A stretch of 64,000 bases of DNA from Chrysomallon squamiferum (lineage: Eukaryota > Animalia > Mollusca): assembly GCA_012295275.1 (NCBI GenBank), contig CM022665.1, positions 36,332,001 to 36,396,000 on the forward strand. Direction: 5' to 3'. Positions 115 through 51,308 of this stretch are shown piece after piece (position 1 is the first letter of the stretch; every line of letters starts with the position of its first letter). A program made the translations under genes and the position numbers. The notes beneath the pieces were generated by a model. It saw nothing but the letters and a program-made list of their open reading frames with translations, was not told where the DNA came from and ran no database searches.

Positions 115-178
115 ATGGCGGACAGTTCGGAACATGCAGAAAGGGCACGCGAGTTGATAAAAGTTGGCATTTTGACAG
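115..178 (+). CDS. GPHN: Gephyrin exon 1 ([21 protein letters not shown])
   Basis: ATG at 115; IKVGILT is the first strand of the G domain; donor G|GTCAGA at 179, phase 1. Confidence 0.9.
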
Positions 179-3038
179 GTCAGATCAATTTAATTTGTGA
201 ATGTCATAGCATTATACTTATCCCACTGGCACTTACCAGTGGGTTCATTTCAGCAGTAAGATAAAGAAGCAGACTGTGTGTTTTAATCATTTATTGTCAT
301 CAGTGTAAACATTGACATTGCTAGCGGAATTATACTGATAAAAAATGTTATGGGACACATTTCTAACGATTGATGCCTAGGTTTAATAAACGCAATTTGC
401 CCCCACCGTCCACCTCAGAATTTTTCATTATGAATTAATAAATCATGAAGAATGTAAAGGCTCACTTTTAATTTAGTTTTAATATCAACTTAATTAGATT
501 TTCCATTTGAGAAAATCTTTGTGAGTTTGGTCCATAGTTCCTTAGTTGATCGTATGATACGACACGTTCAGCATAATATTTTATATCACCTTTTTATTAT
601 TGTTCGTTTTTTTTTTTTTTTTTTTTTTTTTTTAGTATGACCGTTTTATTCATGCACTAATTAGCAATCAAAGCAAAAATTTTATACATTGAAATTCAAC
701 AAAACATACATCAATACATGTATTTTAAGTTAACATTATCAGCTTGTTATATTTTCAGTGAGTGATAGTTGCTACAGTGGTCAGGCTGAGGACAGAAGTG
801 GAAAAAACCTCAAGCAACTTATTGATGCAAAAGACCAAAATAAAATGTGAGAAAGAAAATAAGTATTTGATTTCATTAACATCAGATATCATGCCTTTTT
901 ACTGCTTACAATCTGCTCTTCCTAGATACTTGGGGCATTTCATGGTGTGAGTCACATTCAAAGGTTGAATGTTCAACAGTGGTATATTGAAAGCTATGAC
1001 TGGGTTTTCAGACAGTTTGTTTGTCCACATGACATAATTTTCATTTGCCTATAATCATTTTGTTTTATATTTTATCTTTTGGACAGTATGATATAAACTT
1101 TTTTTTATGTTATTCAAAAACAAAAGTAAAAGATGGTGATTACAATATTTTAATCAGTTCTAGTTAAATAGTAATATATGTTATTTTAATGGCAATGTAA
1201 TGATATAGTTTAAAACTTATCTTTAGATGTTATTATGTGCTGTATTTCAGAAACATATTTTTATGTCTGATAACTTTATCCAAAAGTGTAAGGAGGAATA
1301 CAGTATTTTGAAAAGCTAATGTCCAGTGGGAATACTGCTAAAAGAACTACCCCAAAAAAGATTATCAGAACTTGTGTAACAGTTTTTTCCTTTTTTCAGA
1401 ATACACGGGGAGGTGGTCGCTAGTGACATTGTTCCTGATGAACTCGACAAAATTAAGGTAAATATCTGAAATACAATTTAGATTAATTTAGAAAATAATT
1501 GATGATATAAGTAAATGATGAAAAATCTTCCATTTACATGAGAAAGAAGGGAATGTGGCAGCCTCCATTATGCAATCTTATCTATTTACATTATTTCATT
1601 TAAAAATTAATATCATTTTCTATTTCTTTTTTTTCATATATATATAAATTTACCTTGTTGTCTATGAATCATTTTGGTATCAAGATAATGATTAATATTC
1701 TATTGCCATGTAAAATAATATTCTGTTGATGTGTCATTATATTTGTGTAGGTGAAATTGGAGGAGTGGAGTGATAACTTGAAACTTGATGTAGTTCTCAC
1801 CACTGGGGGAACAGGCTTTTCTCCAAGGGATTTAACACCAGAGGTATTTGTATTTGCTGACAGCACATTATTTCTGTTGCTTTATAAAAACTATTATATA
1901 CATAAATATTATTATTATCATCATCAGACACAATATGCTAAAATGAAAACAGCAAAAAATACGAGTACATGTGTATATATCTAGATGTATGTGCTTGTTT
2001 GTATTTGTTTTTCACTTTATTAAATGTCATGGAAGTTCAAGCAAGTTAAAAATAAACTAAGTATCCAAATCAGAAATATGTAGATACATAAAATACTTGT
2101 ATACAGTGATATGAATGATAAATATTCAGAAATTTTTCATTACACAGATCATAATGAATCTGTTATAAGCTATATATTTTCTGGGTTTTTTTTCATAATG
2201 TTCAGTTGTTAACTATTATAATGTTGTTTCAGGCTACAAAAGAAGTCATTGAACGAGAAGCTCTGGGTATCACTATAGCTATGGTTGTGGGCTCTCTTCA
2301 AATCACATCACTGGCCATGTTGTCCAGGTATACTTTCAAAAATCTTGTTTAAAAATTATTTAAGTATCATATATTTTTAATTTTTGGTAAAAATTAAATG
2401 TCTGACAACAGCGTAATGCAAAGAAAATACTAGGTAGATGACTAAGAAATAGTTATAAAACAAATTTACATACAGAAATAATTTCTTGATAATTATTTCT
2501 TTTTCCTTTCTATTTTATTTTCTGTTACCTGGAGGTTAAAGCATTATTCTGATATATAAAATGTGTGTATATCTGCATGTTTACATGCATGCATGTTTGT
2601 GTTTTAAACCATATATATTCTCATCTTCTCTCTCTCAACCTCTCCATCTATCCCTGTGTGCTTCACTCTCTCACCACTTAATTATTTTGGAATTATGTTT
2701 AATTACAGTTTTGTTATTATAGGTTTTATATTTAATTTCAGATTAACTTGTGGAATAAGGAAAAGGACATTAATAATTAATTTACCTGGAAGCAAGAAAG
2801 GGTCAGAGGTCAGTTAATTTTGGAATACATCACTTAAAATATTCTTTATAGTATTTTTTCTTCATATAATCATAATTTGTTCTGGCCTCTTTATTAGTAT
2901 TTTTTATTTTTATTTATTAACATTTTATTTTTTTAAATTTACTGGGATTATTATTATGATTGTTATTAACATCGTTAGTTAATTTACTGTTAATGTTAAA
3001 ATTATTACTATTAATTATTATTACTGTTATTACTTTGC

Positions 3039-3075
<37 letters not shown>

Positions 3076-6000
3076 TTATCCATGCAGAAAGAAGTGAAAA
3101 AAATACATTACTAAATCTTTATTAAGAAATATAAAAATCAAATAATTAAAATAACAGTCATAATTGATATGTGTTAATATTTGTTTTTTTCCATGTGTGT
3201 TTTTTTAAAAGGAATGTTTCCGACTGGCTTTGCCAGGTATTCCTCATGCTGTAGATTTGTTGAAAGGACACAGTGACCATGTTAAATCAACTCACCAACT
3301 GCTGCAGTCTGAAGATGTACAGGTAAGAATTTTTATCATTGTTCTTTTTCTTCTACTTCCTCTTCTCCTTATTATTATTATAAAAAAAGAAAAAAAAGAA
3401 AATTGTTTTACTGTAAAGGTTAATGTGTTACATCATCTTTGTATTATGTGGTGATTCTTAATAACTGCAGTTTGTGATATTATTTTAAAAAAAAAAAAAA
3501 AAAATTCTTTCTTCCTAATTTAACAATAACTGATGTAGTGTAACTAGAAAAAGGTCCATATATATGTGAAGTAATAAATATCTCAGACAGTGTTGCTTCT
3601 GAATGACTGTTTTATTTGGTTTTGGCCATCCAGTGAATTTCATAATATAATAAAATCCATTTTTTGCTTTTGATATCTTCTTCAGAAGAAAAACATATCA
3701 ATAATGGTAGATTTGTATTTTGCAGAGGGCTTTTGTTTGGCCCTTACATATTATAATTATGCATATTTGTTTTAATTTGAAAAAGGTAGCCACTTCATTC
3801 ATAAAAACTTGTGTTGTGGAACAGGAGATAATTTGTGTTTATTTTTATGACAAATATATATACACGATAATCATTCCAAGTTGTAGACGTTACTGAATCT
3901 GATACATGATTTCAGATGTTAGTTTATAGTTTACAACAGTGTACAAGTATGGTCTTAAATCTCTTAGTACTTTCATAACCATTTTGATGGTGTATGGTAT
4001 ACTTTATTTGTAAAGATACTTTTTTCCCTTATGTACCTGCATGGTTTGAATTGGTGAATACCATTAATGTCACCTTATTACAGCTGAATGGTGGACAAGA
4101 AATTGTGACACAAAGCACTGATTCTTCAGATCACACTGATAAACAGGAATTTCATGACAGTATCACACAGAAAGAAGCTGGCTCTTTTAGTCTTCCTATT
4201 AAACCTGTACCAGTGTACAGAACCCAGGATGAGACTGGTAGTAACATTGTTGTGAAACATTCAACAAATCAGAATCAAAGCGAACATGCTGTTTTCAATT
4301 CCAAAACTAGTGATGTGTGCAAATTCTATTTGATGACAGATCCATCCAGTCAAAACCAGCATTATATTGTTGTCAACAATATTGTATGTAACAGAGATCA
4401 GGAACAAATAAATGTTGCTTCTGAGCTTGATTCATGTGATGATAACACTGCTGATGTAGAACCCACAGATGTTTCTGATCCACAAGCTGAATTTGAGCAT
4501 TTGTCCAGAAAACCTGTATTACAGAGAAATCAAACCAGTTTGTTGCCTTTAAACAGTGTAATCACTGCACAAAGCTCAAATGTAACTGAAAAAAGGAAAG
4601 CACAAAAAAGCACAGATATTTATGACTTTGAAGAAGCTTTGAACCAGGATGATTCCAGTCTGAACACAGATGGCAAGATAAGCAATTTATCAGGCTATAT
4701 TCTGAAAGCTAACATACACAAGAGCTCTTTTGAAGGAGAAGTCATTTTTGTTCCAGTTGGAACTGAACTTAAGCAGTTCTTAAAATCACATCCAAAAATT
4801 CGTGGCATATATCTGAACAAAGGAAAGCGTGATATAAAACGAGCTCTGGTTACTGTGAAGAGACAGGATGGTGCTGTTGATACAGGAAGCTGGAAGAGAG
4901 GGAAACAGGTTCATGAACGGAATCGATTTGATGACTGGTTTGAACTCACTGAGGAAGGAAGGAAGAAGAAGCTGGAAGTTGAGAAGAATGTTTCAAGAGA
5001 TGTGTATGTTGTCAATTGGTATGTGTGGTGCCCTGGGTATGGAAATTGTTTAAGAAGATGTGGATCATATGGACAGTGCAAGCCAGGTTAGTTCTTCAGT
5101 GATTTAATGGTAATTCAGTTTAAGTGACAAATGGCATTTGCTTTATAAAAGCAGTGAAAAAGAAGTTAATAGAACTTGTGGAAAGAATATAGATAATGAA
5201 TAGCAAAAGAAAACTTTTTCTCAGTTTTCTGTGAAAAAGAAAATATTTGTGATTTGTTGAGCTTAAATGTGATTAAATTCAGAAGTAATTATAAATATGA
5301 ACTCAGGGCAGGCATGAAATTTGGAACTAAATAGAAGAAAACCTATACAAAAAAAGTTCATCTGAACAATTCTATATACTTCTACTTGTTTATTTTATAT
5401 ATTATTGGTGACCAAACTTTACATCAAAAGCCTACATTAAAATATTAACATTGCCATTTGTTTTTGTTTCTTATGTACTTCTTGTATCATATGTCCTATT
5501 AAGACAGTTAAATATACTTTGCTCTTGCATGCTAATATTCACCATCTTTGAGCAAGTCATTGGCAAAGTTACAATCTCTGTCAAATATAAAGAAAAAGGA
5601 TCTATTGATTTATAATATCAAATGTCTGTTTGTTTCAGACTGTCCAGGAAAGAATCACAGGCAGGACAGACACAACTGCAGCTTTATGGTCAACCTCAAA
5701 CTGTATCTTAGCAACCTAAAAGAATGGCGAGTGCACCTCACTGGTTCTCATGTTCCACCTGAATCTGGTTGTGTGTGGAAACCACCCCCACCATACATTC
5801 AGCGACTTTCAGAAGACAAACGTGATGCCATTATTCTGCATTCCAAAGAGACGACAAGTTCTACAAAAATAATGGAGGTTCTGACAAGTGAGCCTGATGA
5901 TGAGATGGAAAAAGCAGCAATTTCCAAGCGTAAAATCAGCAGGTTTCTGTCAAGTATGAAAAAACGTAGAAAATATCATTCCTATGATTATAAAAAGACT

Positions 6001-8312
6001 GCCTCTGTTAGTGAGAAAATGTCTGGAGAAAGTGCATCAGTGTCTGGTGAATTGTCCAAAGATCAAGAAAAAGTTGAAGAAAGTAGAAATGATAACAGTA
6101 AAACTGAAAATTCAGTTTCTCAGACATTCAACCAAAGTACAGATTCAGCCTCATTTGGAACAGAACAAAATATATTAGATGTTAAAAGCAGATCTTTGGA
6201 TAAAAACCTTACTGTTATAAAATGTTTTAAGATAGTTGATGCTTCTGGTAAAGTTACATACTTTAAAACCGGTGATAAAGTGACCTGAGGTAGTAGATAC
6301 TAGACATAGAAAATTAATATAACTTCTGAATTTGAATGTGCCTCAGACAGAATAATCTCAGCTAATAAATGAAAACTGCAGTGGAAAAGTGTTGATATAA
6401 CAATATTTATAACATTTCTGATTACTTCAGACATGTGACACAGGACTTAAATTTTTTTTACATAAAATTGTATTTTTCTAAAATAAAACCATGACAATTT
6501 AAATTATTTTTGTAGAAAAGCTCACTATCTAGCAACAAAGAATCATATCATGCATTCTAAATTATTATTTTGCTTAATTCATGAAAAAAATGGTAAATCA
6601 ACCAGGGAACACTAAAAGTGCAACAAGATGAATGAAATTTTTTATTATCAGTATTTTTATGTAATTTTATATTTATTAATAATCTTATTCAGAAATGCAC
6701 AGCATATTTTTTGCAAATGGATGTGACAGAATATCTGCATGTTCACAAGTACAATAATTACTGTGATAATAATAGAGAAGAATGGAATAAAGAAATCTGT
6801 TTTCATTGATAACAGTGATACTACAGGTATCAGCATCAGAATTTAAAAATGGCAGATTTGATTGATTTGTATTATAGCGTTGCAGACAGTTGAATGCATT
6901 CTACTGATCTCATTGATTCATATATTTTTTCAAACAACTGAACATATATATTTTTTTCTCAATTTTCAAAATTAAATAATGGTTTATTATGTGTTAGTGA
7001 CCACATATATAATTACAGTGTATTATATATTTTATAAAATTTATTCCTTTATTATATTTATATATACTGAAATGGTCTTTGTGTACAACATTATTAATAA
7101 AATTTTAAATAATTATTCTTACAGTTTTTGTTTTGTTATTGTAACTGAAAATATTTTGTAGTTAAACATTGGTTTTACAAATATAATAAGAATACGAATT
7201 ACTTTCCATTATCATAGACTAATAGTTTGAGGTTTTATTAATGCTATAAAAATAAGCTTTAAAAAGCAAAGGTTTAATAATTAATATGACTTGTTATGCA
7301 TATTAAATGTAATTATTTTCCTTTTTATTCTTTTTTCTTCAGAAAAACAGTTAAATTTAATGCAAATAGTTGATAATTTTCATTGATTTATTTATTTATA
7401 AAATTACTACTACTACTATTATTATTATTATTTTAAATATATTTATTGGGACAAACACAGCAGTTCTAATAATTAATAATTGCTTCTGAGTCAGTATACA
7501 ACAAACTTCTTTTAACTTTTTGGAATTATATGAAGCAGAATTCTAGAAACTACATCTGAATATGTAATGATGCATCAGGAAAAAAACTTAATTATTGGTC
7601 ATAGATAATTACTTTGTTATACTGATGATTAATAATTATGTTAAATTCAATACTTAATCTAAAACATGGGAGAAAAGTTGTACAAAAACAAACTGGAGAA
7701 ACTGCACGAGTTAATATTTAACTTAAAATATATTACAGTACAGAGCATATTGTAAAAGAAAAACATAACATTTCTATCAAAGTATTTCATGCCACCACAA
7801 AATGTAACATGCATATCTCCAGTTCTTTGGATATTAATGTAATATCTCACAGTATCAGCTTTTAGAGTTTGGGAATGCATCCAGTCAACTTTGTCAGTCT
7901 TTTCTGTATAGGCAGGCATCCAGTATGTTTGTAATTTTGTTTTCTGTTTGAAATATTATTATCTGGACTTAGATATGTATTATACATAACTGTAAATTTC
8001 TTTATCTGGACTTAGCTGTGTGTATTATATATGACTTAAGTTTCATTATCTGCACTTAGCAATATGTATTGTACACAATTATAATTCAGTTAACAAGGTA
8101 CATTCTATGTGATTTAGTATTGTTAAATAAATGGAAATATGTATGCTTTTCAAAAATAATGTCCATCAATATATGTCCATCAATATATTAAATGAAATTT
8201 TCCCAGCCACATAATGTTTTATTGGTTTTTGTTTTTATCTTGGCCATATATACATACATATGAACAGGTATGCTTATAAGTAATATGCATGTAAACTTAG
8301 AAGATAAAATAG

Positions 8313-8371
<59 letters not shown>

Positions 8372-8888
8372 TATTTTATTATAATTTATTCAATTTTTTA
8401 AAACATTATATATATTATTATTATTTATTTTTTTCATTTATCATTTCTTATCATTTTTAATTTCCTTTCAGCATGGAGACAAGGATATTTTATCACATCC
8501 ACCACCCAGTCATCATTCTGATAACCTACCAGGACATCATGATCATCACCATCATCATCACCATCATCACCACACACACAGCAGTAGTAAGTATGATGTG
8601 ATTTATTTTATAATTATTACTATTAGAAATGTCTTTTGGACATTAACCTTAAATACATGAACTTCATTTTTTATTCTTGAAGCTGATATTTTTTTAAAGA
8701 ACATTATTCTTAACTTATTAATTTGTGAAATAACTTTACTTCTTTTTTGATAATGTTGATAATACAACTTTTCCAGCCTCAGTGTTTTGTATATCAGAAG
8801 TCTAAAAAAATATATATTTATTAATTTATATCCATTGTTTTATTTTATTTTTTTATTTTTTCTTATGTGTTTTTTATTTCTTTCTTTT

Positions 8889-48060: not shown

Positions 48061-51000
48061 CAGGAGCAACAGCAGCAGCAGTTAAAGTAGTGTAAGTAGT
48101 AATAGTAGTAGCAGTAGTAGTAGTAGTGGTGGTGGTGGTAGCAGTAGTAATAATAATAAGTATTATAATAGTATTACTGTAATTATAATACTATTATTAT
48201 TTCCTTATTTATTTATTTTTTTAAATAACTGTCTTTTACAAAATAGCCTATGGATTTATTTAAAACTATAATACATTGTCTGTTCTGTATCTATTTTCAT
48301 AAATTTATTAAACCACACAGTATCTTTAAAATTCTTCTTTTTTTTTTCTTTTTTTTTAACGTTTGTCTTCTATTTTCATTTTAATAACCGAATGTGTTTT
48401 GAACAAACCTTCCCACAGACAAGAAGATACATACCATGAACTTTCCAGTACAAAGCAGTTAGTAGAATGTCAGTAGAAGACTGGTTAGTAGAAAAAAGGG
48501 TTAATGATGTATCGCCTGTCTACACAGCCTTGAAATGTTAACATATAAAATGCATATCCCAGATGCTTTGACTCTGTGCCAGGAATAAATTTGTTTAAAA
48601 GAAAATGAAGCAGGCTGGAAGCAGATTCAGTTTATGACAAGAACTCAGATACATTGGTAACAGAGTGGGTTTTATGACAGGTATCACTGTAAACTGGTTG
48701 AATTTTTTTTCTTTTCTTTTTCTTTTTTATTTTTTTATATTTTTTATATATAATATATATTTTTTATTTTTTTTGACAAGTGATGCAAAATGATAAAAAC
48801 ATACAAGAGTTTATTATGACAGAATGTGCTGTGTGTAAAGATAACCACAGTTGGGTTTGGACTTGCAGAGTGTGGTATAACAAACTGGGTTTATGACAAG
48901 TAATTCAAGAGTAGGTCAGGTAAACTAGACTGGGTTTCTGACCAAAAAACTGGTTTTGATGAAAAAAAAATGAAAAAAAACAGGTTGATTATGACAAATA
49001 GTACTGTGTGTTGTTTTGTTATCCACTTAGGTTTTGATGTATTATAACAAACTGTGGACAGGACAGGTATTGCAGTAATAGACTTGAGTTGTAGACTTGA
49101 GTTTGTTTCATGAGATCAGGTTTGTGAGTAGGGCAGATTTATTTTTGTTTTTTTAAGTTCCCATCTGTGACTTTATTCTTGGTTGTGAAATGTGTAAACT
49201 TACAAAGGACTGGGTTTTTAACAAATGGTACTTAATACATTTTAAAGATTATCAGAGGGAATAAGTTACACAGGTTTTTCACTGTAGATTTTTATTTGTT
49301 AGATTGTGGACTGCATAAGTCATAAGAGGGTTACTGATTACTGAATAATATTTCTATAGTAAAATACGTAACACATTGGATTAGTGAAGGATATTACTGT
49401 ATTAAGCTGTAAAAGCTGAAAAAATGTTGGATTAGTGAATGGATAGATATAGTAGTCTATGTAAGCTGGTAAAAGACTGGATTAGTGAATGGATAATTAC
49501 AGTAATCTGTCTAAGCTGGTAGAAGACTGGATTAGTGAATAGATAGTTACAGTAATCTGTGTAAGCTTTTAAATGACTGGATTAATGAATGATACTTCTG
49601 TTGTAAAGTTAGGCAGGTTTTATAATTGGATTTATTATAGGTTATCAAGCATAATTTTACTCAGACTTCTTTATATGTAGACAAAAGACAGGTAGGTAGT
49701 TTGATTACAAGGTTAAAGCTAGACAGTATTGCTTCTAACTGATACAGATTTTGTCAGGTTGAAAGTTCTTCACTCAGTAACACTTTGTATTTGATAGTTC
49801 TTTCAAAACTGGGACACATGTAAGTTGGTAACACTGGGTATCTGACAGGTATTGATGTGGTAGATGAGGTCACCTGGTAGCAGTGACTGATGATGATGTA
49901 GCAGCTGAGGTCATATGTTAGCCTGGTGTATTCATTTCAGATAATGATGATGTCAGCAAGGTAAGCAAGTATCAGAACTATAATCTGCTACACTGGGTTT
50001 TTGAGTAATCAAATACATAAAACACAGTGTGTTTTTTTTTAACTAGTAGATAAAGATCATTGTAAGTTTATGTGACAGATAATATAAAGGACTTTCTTAG
50101 CTGATTAGATAATTAGGTTGTAGCTGATTATTTTAGTAGATTATATAAGCTAGTACTTTAATGGTTAACATATAACAAAAAATAATGCTGTGATATACTG
50201 TTTAAGAAAAAAGCTGTTAATTTATTGGTTTTGACAAGTAGTTTGTATTTGGCTGTGTAAGATGGTAAATCCTTTGATTTTAACCTGAAGTATATACTTA
50301 GTGTAGTAGCTTCTGGGCTTTTTAAGGTGGAAACACATCTGACTTTTGCCATGTAATGGGGTGTGTGACATGATAGTCAAATGTTTGTTTTGTTTGGGTT
50401 TTTTTGTCATGGGCTGTGAACATAGTTTTAACAAGTAGTGTGTATTAGGCTGTGTAAGCTGGTAACACATTGGTTTTAACAAGTAGTGTGTATTAGACTG
50501 TGTATGCTGGTAACACATTGGTTTTAACAAGTAGTGTGTATTAGGCTGTGTAAGCTGGTAACACATTGGTTTTAACAAGTAGTGTGTATTAGGCTGTGTA
50601 AGCTGGTAACACATTGGTTTTAACAAGTAGTGTGTATTAGGCTGTGTAAGCTGGTAACACATTGGTTTTAACAAGTAGTGTGTATTAGACTGTGTAAGCT
50701 GGTAACACATTGGTTTTAACAAGTAGTGTGTATTAGACTGTGTAAGCTGGTAACACATTGGTTTTAACAAGTAGTGTGTATTAGACTGTGTAAGCTGGTA
50801 ACACATTGGTTTTAACAAGTAGTGTGTATTAGGCTGTGTAAGCTGGTAACATTGGTTTTAACAAGTAGTGTGTATTAGACTGTGTAACAACATTGGTTTT
50901 AACAAGTAGTGTGTGTTAGGCTGTGTAAGCTGGTAACACATTGGTTTTAACAAGTAGTGTGTATTAGACTGTGTAAGCTGGTAACACATTGGTTTTAACA

Positions 51001-51308
51001 AGTAGTGTGTATTAGACTGTGTAAGCTGGTAACACATTGGTTTTAACAAGTAGTGTGTATTAGGCTGTGTAAGCTGGTAACACATTGGTTTTAACAAGTA
51101 GTGTGTATTAGACTGTGTAAGCTGGTAACACATTGGTTTTAACAAGTAGTATGTGTTAGGCTGTGTAAGCTGGTAACACATTGGTTTTAGTGTTGTAATG
51201 GTGTTTAAACAAACTGAGTATGTGGGACATCCTGACACACAAAGATCAGGTCAGACTGCCAGGTTTGGTTTTCTGAATGAGTCCAGCATGTTACACTGTT
51301 GATTCTCT

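Follow-up and report, generated by a model that had tools for sequence, protein, structure and literature searches.

Fusions between host genes and transposases have been described in CSB-PGBD3, SETMAR, and KRABINER (bioRxiv 10.1101/2020.05.07.082677). In these fusions, a transposase region is spliced alternatively onto upstream host exons, DNA-binding domains are favoured, and old fusions usually retain the fusion transcript only. Here we describe a comparable arrangement in the gephyrin gene of Chrysomallon squamiferum, located in a stretch of 64,000 nucleotides (nt) (the window; all positions are window positions on the + strand). Two exons behind the G-domain exons of this gene, A and B, are expressed, and they are likely spliced onto exon 7 to give a second protein from the gephyrin locus. 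By homology, what they encode corresponds to the N-terminal region of Mutator-type (MULE) transposases, and the catalytic core is missing. As in the described fusions, the transposase-derived domain lies on exons apart from the host exons; it is found at an orthologous position and under purifying selection. However, the host part of the gephyrin fusion is a metabolic enzyme domain and not a KRAB, SET, or chromatin domain, the donor is a MULE, and the fusion spans protostomes and deuterostomes. Moreover, unlike in the old fusions, the parental enzyme exons are still in the gephyrin gene, and the isoform is set apart from all three described fusions by an F/YxF motif. The words 'Mutator', 'MULE', and 'gephyrin' do not occur in the text of bioRxiv 10.1101/2020.05.07.082677.

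The transposase-derived part, hereafter the module, is most similar to the insert-type WRKY-GCM1 domains, which are found in MULE transposases and in the derived factors Aft2, Far1, and GCM (Babu et al., PMC1702500). Like these domains, it has an insert between conserved cysteines and a Trp in strand 4, and in its transposase relatives the zinc module is N-terminal to the MULE core and SWIM, as in the WRKY-GCM1 MULEs (PMC1702500). Unlike them, it has its own four-cysteine insert pattern, only a single conserved His behind strand 4, and an additional alpha/beta part at its N-terminus. The available text of PMC1702500 contains no fusion of gephyrin to a WRKY-GCM1 domain. For the F/YxF motif, the closest system is CTCF, which has YDF at residues 226-228 and a basic linker at 250-264 beside zinc finger 1 (bioRxiv 2026.10.19.760054, bioRxiv 2025.01.26.634934). 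SGO1 uses the same STAG-RAD21 pocket of cohesin as CTCF (PMC10279526), and invertebrate CTCF keeps the motif without anchoring loops (bioRxiv 2026.10.19.760054). The gephyrin isoform resembles CTCF in that a candidate motif of the YDF type occurs within a disordered linker, a short distance ahead of the predicted DNA-binding unit, but the two proteins are not homologous, the DNA-binding fold is different, and in the gephyrin family the motif is patchy.

A first-pass annotation of this DNA had compared the locus with mod(mdg4) and lola, in which a shared oligomerising N-terminus, a BTB domain, is joined to many alternative ends. In addition, mod(mdg4) carries FLYWCH (PMC1702500). The common oligomerising N-terminus and the transposase-related zinc finger as an alternative end are indeed similar, but the gephyrin locus has one alternative end and not an array, with an enzyme domain in place of BTB. 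The analogy is therefore loose, and capture of the CSB-PGBD3 type is closer. In agreement with the same annotation, which knew of no such case for gephyrin, we found no description of an isoform with a G domain and this module in the open literature (supplements and subscription papers were outside the search). The main text of PMC10027918, a paper whose tables may include some of the proteins described here, does not contain the word 'gephyrin', and no such isoform came up in term searches of PMC13262936.

The window contains a complete gephyrin gene, with G-domain exons 1-7, exon 8, and E-domain exons to about 55092 (Table 1). Exon 7 ends at 3322 (CAG^GTAAGA), and its phase-0 donor fits the acceptors at both 4084 and 8472; thus the A/B route and the E-domain route are alternatives. 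Chained in frame, exons 1-7, A, and B would encode 742 amino acids (aa). The coordinates, splice phases, and chain length proposed earlier for this product were borne out by the re-examined sequence, and the border of exons 2 and 3 was placed at 846^1400, correcting an earlier gene model. Exon A encodes a poorly conserved linker and then the first half of the MULE-derived module. Exon B encodes the second half of the zinc module, a three-helix helix-turn-helix (HTH)/Myb-like bundle ending in KKRRK, and a variable tail before the TGA.

Five sequencing runs contain this stretch; RNA was checked over 3800-6560 in assembled contigs of three RNA runs from one study and of run X5. The predicted 5086^5639 junction (GT..AG) was found in contigs of all three RNA runs. 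Run X5 spans the stretch unspliced, without this joint, and may be the source of the window DNA. The RNA contigs covered parts of 4211-5086 and 5639-6548, and none covered the intron between A and B or 3800-4210; missing RNA over 4084-4210 was not counted as evidence of absence. Two of the three RNA runs read unspliced through the TGA of exon B which, together with the phase-0 alternatives at exon 7, agrees with the earlier proposal that the new C-terminus excludes the E domain. Furthermore, the X1 contig 6187-6548 continues unspliced past the stop codon and past AATAAA at 6364 and 6482, indicating that the 3' end is not set by those signals. The AATAAA reported downstream of the TGA is thus present, but it does not fix the 3' end.

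A profile of the conserved core of the module matched 71 proteins of 439-2000 aa, 36 of which also carry the G-domain family PF00994. These fused proteins are from gastropods, bivalves, a chiton, Lineus, Owenia, Lingula, four echinoderm classes, Ptychodera, Branchiostoma, and two contigs, and the fusion of G domain and module is annotated in seven phyla, from molluscs to amphioxus. In databases they are labelled 'uncharacterized protein', 'gephyrin-like', or 'molybdopterin molybdotransferase'. The remaining matches are five named proteins without PF00994 (two of them with a partial G domain) and 30 contig open reading frames (ORFs). One fused protein, P0036, which falls into a cluster with Mytilus proteins, has both parts in a single 935-aa ORF on a contig of 2,952 nt. 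Since introns separate the G exons in the window as well as in loci L003 and L005 (see below), P0036 is best read as a spliced transcript. Named vertebrates, arthropods, nematodes, and cnidarians were not among the 71 core matches, which is weak evidence of loss given that 150 of 227 profile matches were listed and cluster names cover 30 proteins.

We also compared five animal loci from metagenomes (L001-L005). The intron between A and B is at the same codon and in phase 1 in all five, and Gly is found at this donor codon in 54 of 69 ORFs that contain half a module. Flanking gephyrin exons are present in four of the loci, and the stop codon is in exon B in four, while the fifth runs off its contig. 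In L003 and L005, exon 7 lies upstream with a phase-0 donor, and L003 also has a phase-0 acceptor at exon A; in L001, L004, and L005, E exons are downstream of the exon B stop. The ratio of nonsynonymous to synonymous substitution rates (dN/dS) between L002 and L003 was 0.019 in each half of the core and 0.26 in the linker, this being the one usable pair of 15, because the other 14, among them every pair that involves the window, had reached or come close to saturation. The module of 242 aa is 42-74% identical across phyla. Between the window and Gigantopelta aegis, the G domain is 80% and the module 74% identical; both this likeness and the place in the tree put the animal among the gastropods, near Gigantopelta aegis.

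In a tree of 59 rows (none dropped, root assumed among the transposases), the 39 gephyrin-type rows were on one side of a branch with support of 97/95, which 96% of the 200 bootstrap trees also contained. Aplysia, Saccoglossus, and L002 were counted among the 39 without a visible G context. The gephyrin-type branch adjoins two mollusc sequences, one of them with the start of a transposase core, and nine named deuterostome rows group at 98/86. From this tree we infer a single capture before the protostome-deuterostome split. Of the conservation in the same gephyrin intron with dN/dS below 1 that was suggested at the outset as a check, the flanking gephyrin exons are seen in four of the five loci and the low dN/dS in one pair. 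The proposed alternative-last-exon isoform, a G domain with a conserved C-terminus, is supported by the A-B joint in RNA, the 36 fused models, the loci, and the tree branch. On these comparisons, the gephyrin isoform is an ancient host-transposase fusion and neither a recent insertion nor a one-off.

The origin of the module was examined by an exhaustive profile search (227 matches, 150 of them listed, with cluster names for 30 proteins). Among the matches listed, proteins of Diversispora and Gigaspora and other contig proteins have the module as the N-terminus of a longer protein with MULE features. In P0135 and P0157, a DDE core with CxxH and a C-terminal SWIM stand behind the N-terminal zinc module. 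P0157 is above the Pfam MULE cut-off (34.8 vs 27.6 bits), and P0135 has the module, the D, D, CxxH, and E motifs, and SWIM according to our own patterns, with a Pfam MULE match below the cut-off (E 9e-4). A profile of 13 transposase relatives matched the window, searched in six frames, only at profile positions 14-134 and 144-281. Because this match is confined to the first 281 positions, the catalytic core is gone from the window exons, and the same profile found no catalytic DDE core in any of the six frames. The relatives had been found with the module itself, so the match is circular and its extent is the result.

Other related proteins have different arrangements. P0133, P0142, and P0149 are short ORFs with the module near the start and an apparent break at the codon of the intron between A and B, which suggests that the intron may have come with the transposon. 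In P0180 and P0187 (Biomphalaria), a related module is in front of the tRNA pseudouridine synthase PUS3; since it is outside the gephyrin branch, this may be a second enzyme-transposase fusion. P0152 and P0191 (Branchiostoma lanceolatum) are Death-NACHT proteins that end in a related module. P0173, P0175, and P0170 (Octopus, Pomacea) have a shortened module and P0138 has two copies, all with no other recognised domain, and they are possibly domesticated factors. P0127 (Mytilus galloprovincialis VDH95965.1) is called 'gephyrin', but it contains the module and a fragment of the start of a transposase with neither G nor E domain, and is a mis-annotation.

The cysteine pattern C-x3-C-x3-G-x-C-x3-C of the module is kept in 38 of the 39 gephyrin rows, H-x-C in all 39, and G-x-H in 38, and two zinc sites are likely from this pattern. 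The intron between A and B falls inside the Cys-rich insert. The Gigantopelta module, predicted from a 140-row alignment (pLDDT 94, pTM 0.88; an earlier 9-row fold with pLDDT 49 was set aside), consists of a beta-sheet with the Cys-rich insert followed by three helices. Alignment and model agree on a four-stranded sheet, a Cys pair around the insert, and a Trp in strand 4, as expected for an insert-type WRKY-GCM1 domain. HxH or HxC ligands after strand 4 are absent from the module, where only G-x-H is conserved, and the H-x-C before strand 3 may supply the fourth zinc ligand. Matches to solved structures were modest. The sheet aligned with AFT2 bound to DNA (Z 4.5, root-mean-square deviation 4.1, 99 residues) and in Foldseek with WRKY18 (TM(target) 0.60, E 0.75). 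Atlas clusters of GCM, CaRF, and FAR1 at 0.85-0.89, and also of AFT and MULE, were taken as leads only, and when PDB sequences were searched with the profile of the module, the sole match was attributable to chance. The helices resemble Myb/SANT and transposase HTH domains (Z up to 6.2; Tc3 4.9, Mos1 4.9, SETMAR 4.4). Judging from its origin and predicted fold, the module probably binds DNA. The putative DNA-binding C-terminus of the first-pass annotation therefore stands as probable, while the MULE origin and the F/YxF motif had been missed.

Apart from the short F/YxF motif, the linker cannot be aligned across phyla. Linkers were searched within 110 aa of the core with the published F/YxF pattern for binding to the conserved essential surface (CES) of cohesin (PMC10238091). 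The pattern was present in 10 of 40 orthologue linkers (0.09 expected from shuffles), only once in the other 29,669 aa, and in none of 24 transposases or other relatives. The ten linkers are from gastropods, bivalves, a nemertean, a brachiopod, hemichordates, and amphioxus. The motif is 31-67 aa before the core, in a disordered and otherwise unconserved region, and it is often followed by a K/R-rich stretch. A looser pattern of our own, made after seeing the motif, was present in 20 of the 40 (2.2 expected), adding limpets, the chiton, Owenia, and six echinoderms. These counts indicate conservation and not binding, and we hold only tentatively, at somewhat less than even chances, that the motif docks on cohesin STAG-RAD21. 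Alternatively, the YDF could be an FDF-type motif of the kind that binds the helicase DDX6.

The G domain in the window agrees with rat gephyrin at all 22 marker positions except for a conservative I at 113. Its active-site motifs are intact, and so are those of 23 of the 29 orthologous G domains that were aligned. The intact motifs would fit the proposal of the first-pass annotation that the G domain of the isoform binds molybdopterin (MPT) or MPT-AMP and makes it a transcription factor sensing the molybdenum cofactor (Moco). Also in its favour, MoaB2, a bacterial relative of the G domain, modulates transcription (PMC11656743). However, these exons are shared with the essential enzyme isoform and must stay intact, so the motifs in the window are uninformative: they are intact, as reported, but they are not a functional hint. 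Furthermore, six of the 29 G domains (two limpets and four contig rows) are kept with the module although their active-site motifs are eroded. Patella has lost S23, D24, D61, T88, G89, R93, and P145-S147 (rat numbering), and Patella vulgata likewise. The Lottia model lacks the N-terminal G sites, and its remaining active-site positions are lost as in Patella. Both Patella and Lottia keep S129-R130 and hydrophobic residues at 90, 113, and 128. They also keep G134, which is needed for trimerisation of the gephyrin G domain (PMC13470343). Limpets appear to have split the isoform into a gene of its own, in which catalysis decayed and the G domain stayed and, judging from its sequence, may still form a trimer. 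A G domain kept without its active site favours an oligomerising role over MPT sensing, and the long and variable linker between G domain and module (about 120-520 aa) fits tethering better than allostery. The MPT sensor is therefore weakened, and we consider it unlikely. Four contigs of 1.8-3.9 kb (P0072, P0100, P0102, P0103) each encode, in a single ORF, a G domain that is strongly degenerate and a module that evolves fast, and they form a long branch within the gephyrin group; a search with the degenerate P0102 found only its own four-member contig group.

Overall, we consider it probable that exons 1-7, A, and B encode a nuclear DNA-binding fusion isoform with the G domain as its oligomeriser. 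Before the protostome-deuterostome split, a MULE element may have landed downstream of the G-domain exons, after which its DNA-binding region would have been captured as alternative last exons and the catalytic part lost. In the isoform, the G domain would supply three-fold oligomerisation, a role played in fly architectural proteins by BTB or ZAD domains. The zinc finger and HTH would read DNA, KKRRK may import the isoform into the nucleus, and in many lineages the F/YxF motif before the DNA-binding unit might dock on the STAG-RAD21 surface as the YDF of CTCF does. A wider reading, less probable than the docking itself and clearly less likely than not, is that in many bilaterians the gephyrin gene gives rise to a trimeric genome organiser, composed of a G trimer, a cohesin-docking YDF, and a DNA reader derived from a transposase. 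Such a protein would anchor loops as CTCF does but would have arisen independently, and its supply would be linked through splicing, possibly also through mixed trimers, to that of the gephyrin serving as Moco enzyme and as scaffold at synapses. Since invertebrate CTCF keeps the motif without loop anchoring, even cohesin binding would not prove an insulator role.

Several observations weigh against the nuclear fusion isoform or parts of it. No RNA contig covers 4084-4210 or the 3322^4084 joint in this species, and all RNA support is from contigs of a single study. Named models without any G domain exist in Aplysia, Saccoglossus, and Mytilus coruscus, S. purpuratus has a second, G-less model, and four of the 36 fused models read from G through the module to E-domain families. 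P0135 and P0157 are classed as putative MULE transposases from their protein motifs, and Pfam found no family near the cut-off for exons A/B and nine aligned members. In the structural comparisons, no match of the module had Foldseek E <= 0.001 or Z >= 8, and GCM was not among the matches shown. Limpets have Ser at 168, a trimer contact, and the degenerate contig group lacks the L128-S129 segment. The strict F/YxF pattern is missing from 30 and the looser one from 20 of the 40 linkers, and the counts are not independent because the linker rows are related. The motif does not occur in heterobranch snails, heterodont and unionid bivalves, L001-L005, and the degenerate contig group.

The RNA gap and the G-less models, together with an in-frame ATG at 3994 upstream of exon A, would also fit a separate gene that is nested in intron 7 and has a promoter there, the fused models being annotation merges. 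However, codons 3988-4044 are unlike the Gigantopelta sequence (0 of 19), 36 of the 71 core matches are fused to a G domain, P0036 is fused in a single ORF, and limpets keep a diverged G domain fused to the module. A nested gene is thus improbable, a little more so than the MPT sensor. The earlier view that the 30 codons before exon A look intronic does not extend to 4045-4083, whose 13 codons match the Gigantopelta coding sequence (6 of 13 identical); the score of 26 was reached by none of 52,697 stop-free 13-mers elsewhere in the window. Similarly, its statement that there is no convincing independent start needs qualification, since the ATG exists, although its codons do not resemble those of Gigantopelta. 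The match ends at 4045, where the Gigantopelta protein reads DVQ, the last residues of exon 7 here. There is no AG before 4045 in the window, and the acceptor has therefore probably moved to 4084. In the simplest reading, an ancestral acceptor at 4045 probably lost its AG and splicing shifted 39 nt downstream.

With nearly the same low probability, the isoform might act mainly on gephyrin, by joining G trimers without an E domain and dampening or relocating Moco synthesis or receptor clustering. Identical G domains would be expected to co-assemble. Gephyrin clustering requires trimers of the G domain, and a mutant of this domain is dominant-negative (PMC13470343). An action on gephyrin would, however, leave the 42-74% identity of the module and the dN/dS of 0.02 unexplained. 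Such an action can coexist with the nuclear DNA-binding isoform. Even less probable are exons A and B as an internal cassette of a G-module-E gephyrin. Four of the 36 fused models do read on to E (two from Diadema, one from Liolophura marked low quality, and one from Owenia), but RNA here is unspliced through the TGA, the exon B stop is ahead of the E exons in L001, L004, and L005, and S. purpuratus has both read-through and terminal models. A recent or decaying transposon insertion without function, although the module is homologous to transposases, is refuted by its presence in the same intron of the same gene in seven phyla, on one branch and under strong purifying selection, with no inverted repeat of at least 12 bases flanking exons A/B in the stretches compared and no catalytic core in the window.

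Table 1. Features of the gephyrin locus in the window
Feature	Positions	Strand	Remarks
Shared gephyrin exons 1-7	115-178, 759-846, 1400-1457, 1751-1843, 2233-2327, 2742-2808, 3212-3322	+	full G domain, 192 aa
13 codons before predicted acceptor, probable former exon start	4045-4083	+	likeness to Gigantopelta coding sequence
Exon A	4084-5086	+	predicted acceptor TACAG^, phase 0; donor phase 1 seen in RNA
IYDFEE, aa 371-376	4618-4635	+	match to published cohesin CES-binding F/YxF pattern; ~38 aa before core
WRKY-GCM1-like zinc module	4699-5086 + 5639-5751	+	C-x5-C-x3-C-x5-C-x3-C ... H-x-C ... W ... G-x-H
Exon B, terminal coding exon	5639-6288	+	acceptor phase 1; TGA 6286-6288
Three-helix HTH/Myb-like bundle	about 5803-5976	+	predicted structure; KKRRK at 5959-5973
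3' untranslated region of alternative isoform	6289-6548 at least	+	RNA contig; AATAAA at 6364, 6482, another 6786
Canonical route: exon 8 + E-domain exons	8472-8586; E exons ~9416 to 55092	+	exon 8 acceptor phase 0

The alternative isoform ends about 75 aa before its Gigantopelta counterpart, and a third exon for these C-terminal 75 aa was not found in 6201-8471 (best score 34). The isoform in the window is without a short C-terminal helix-like motif that is common to Gigantopelta, Haliotis, limpets, Lingula, and amphioxus. In full-length gephyrin, the linker encoded by exon 8 is rich in His and includes a run of ten His, and His-rich linkers are also found in Owenia, Liolophura, and Diadema. 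A tandem array with a unit of about 16 codons lies in a large gephyrin intron (50222-51250).

The capture of this transposase region would be older than the protostome-deuterostome split, its partner is the oligomerising domain of a metabolic enzyme, and an essential gene continues to carry the fusion in the form of an alternative ending. The isoform is a candidate for an unstudied DNA-binding protein in molluscs, annelids, echinoderms, and amphioxus. In these animals, any gephyrin knock-down directed at exons 1-7 would affect two functions that are unrelated to each other. The F/YxF motif bears on whether invertebrates have a cohesin anchor other than CTCF, and if this is true, the gephyrin locus would provide a loop anchor independent of CTCF in invertebrates, where CTCF does little loop anchoring.

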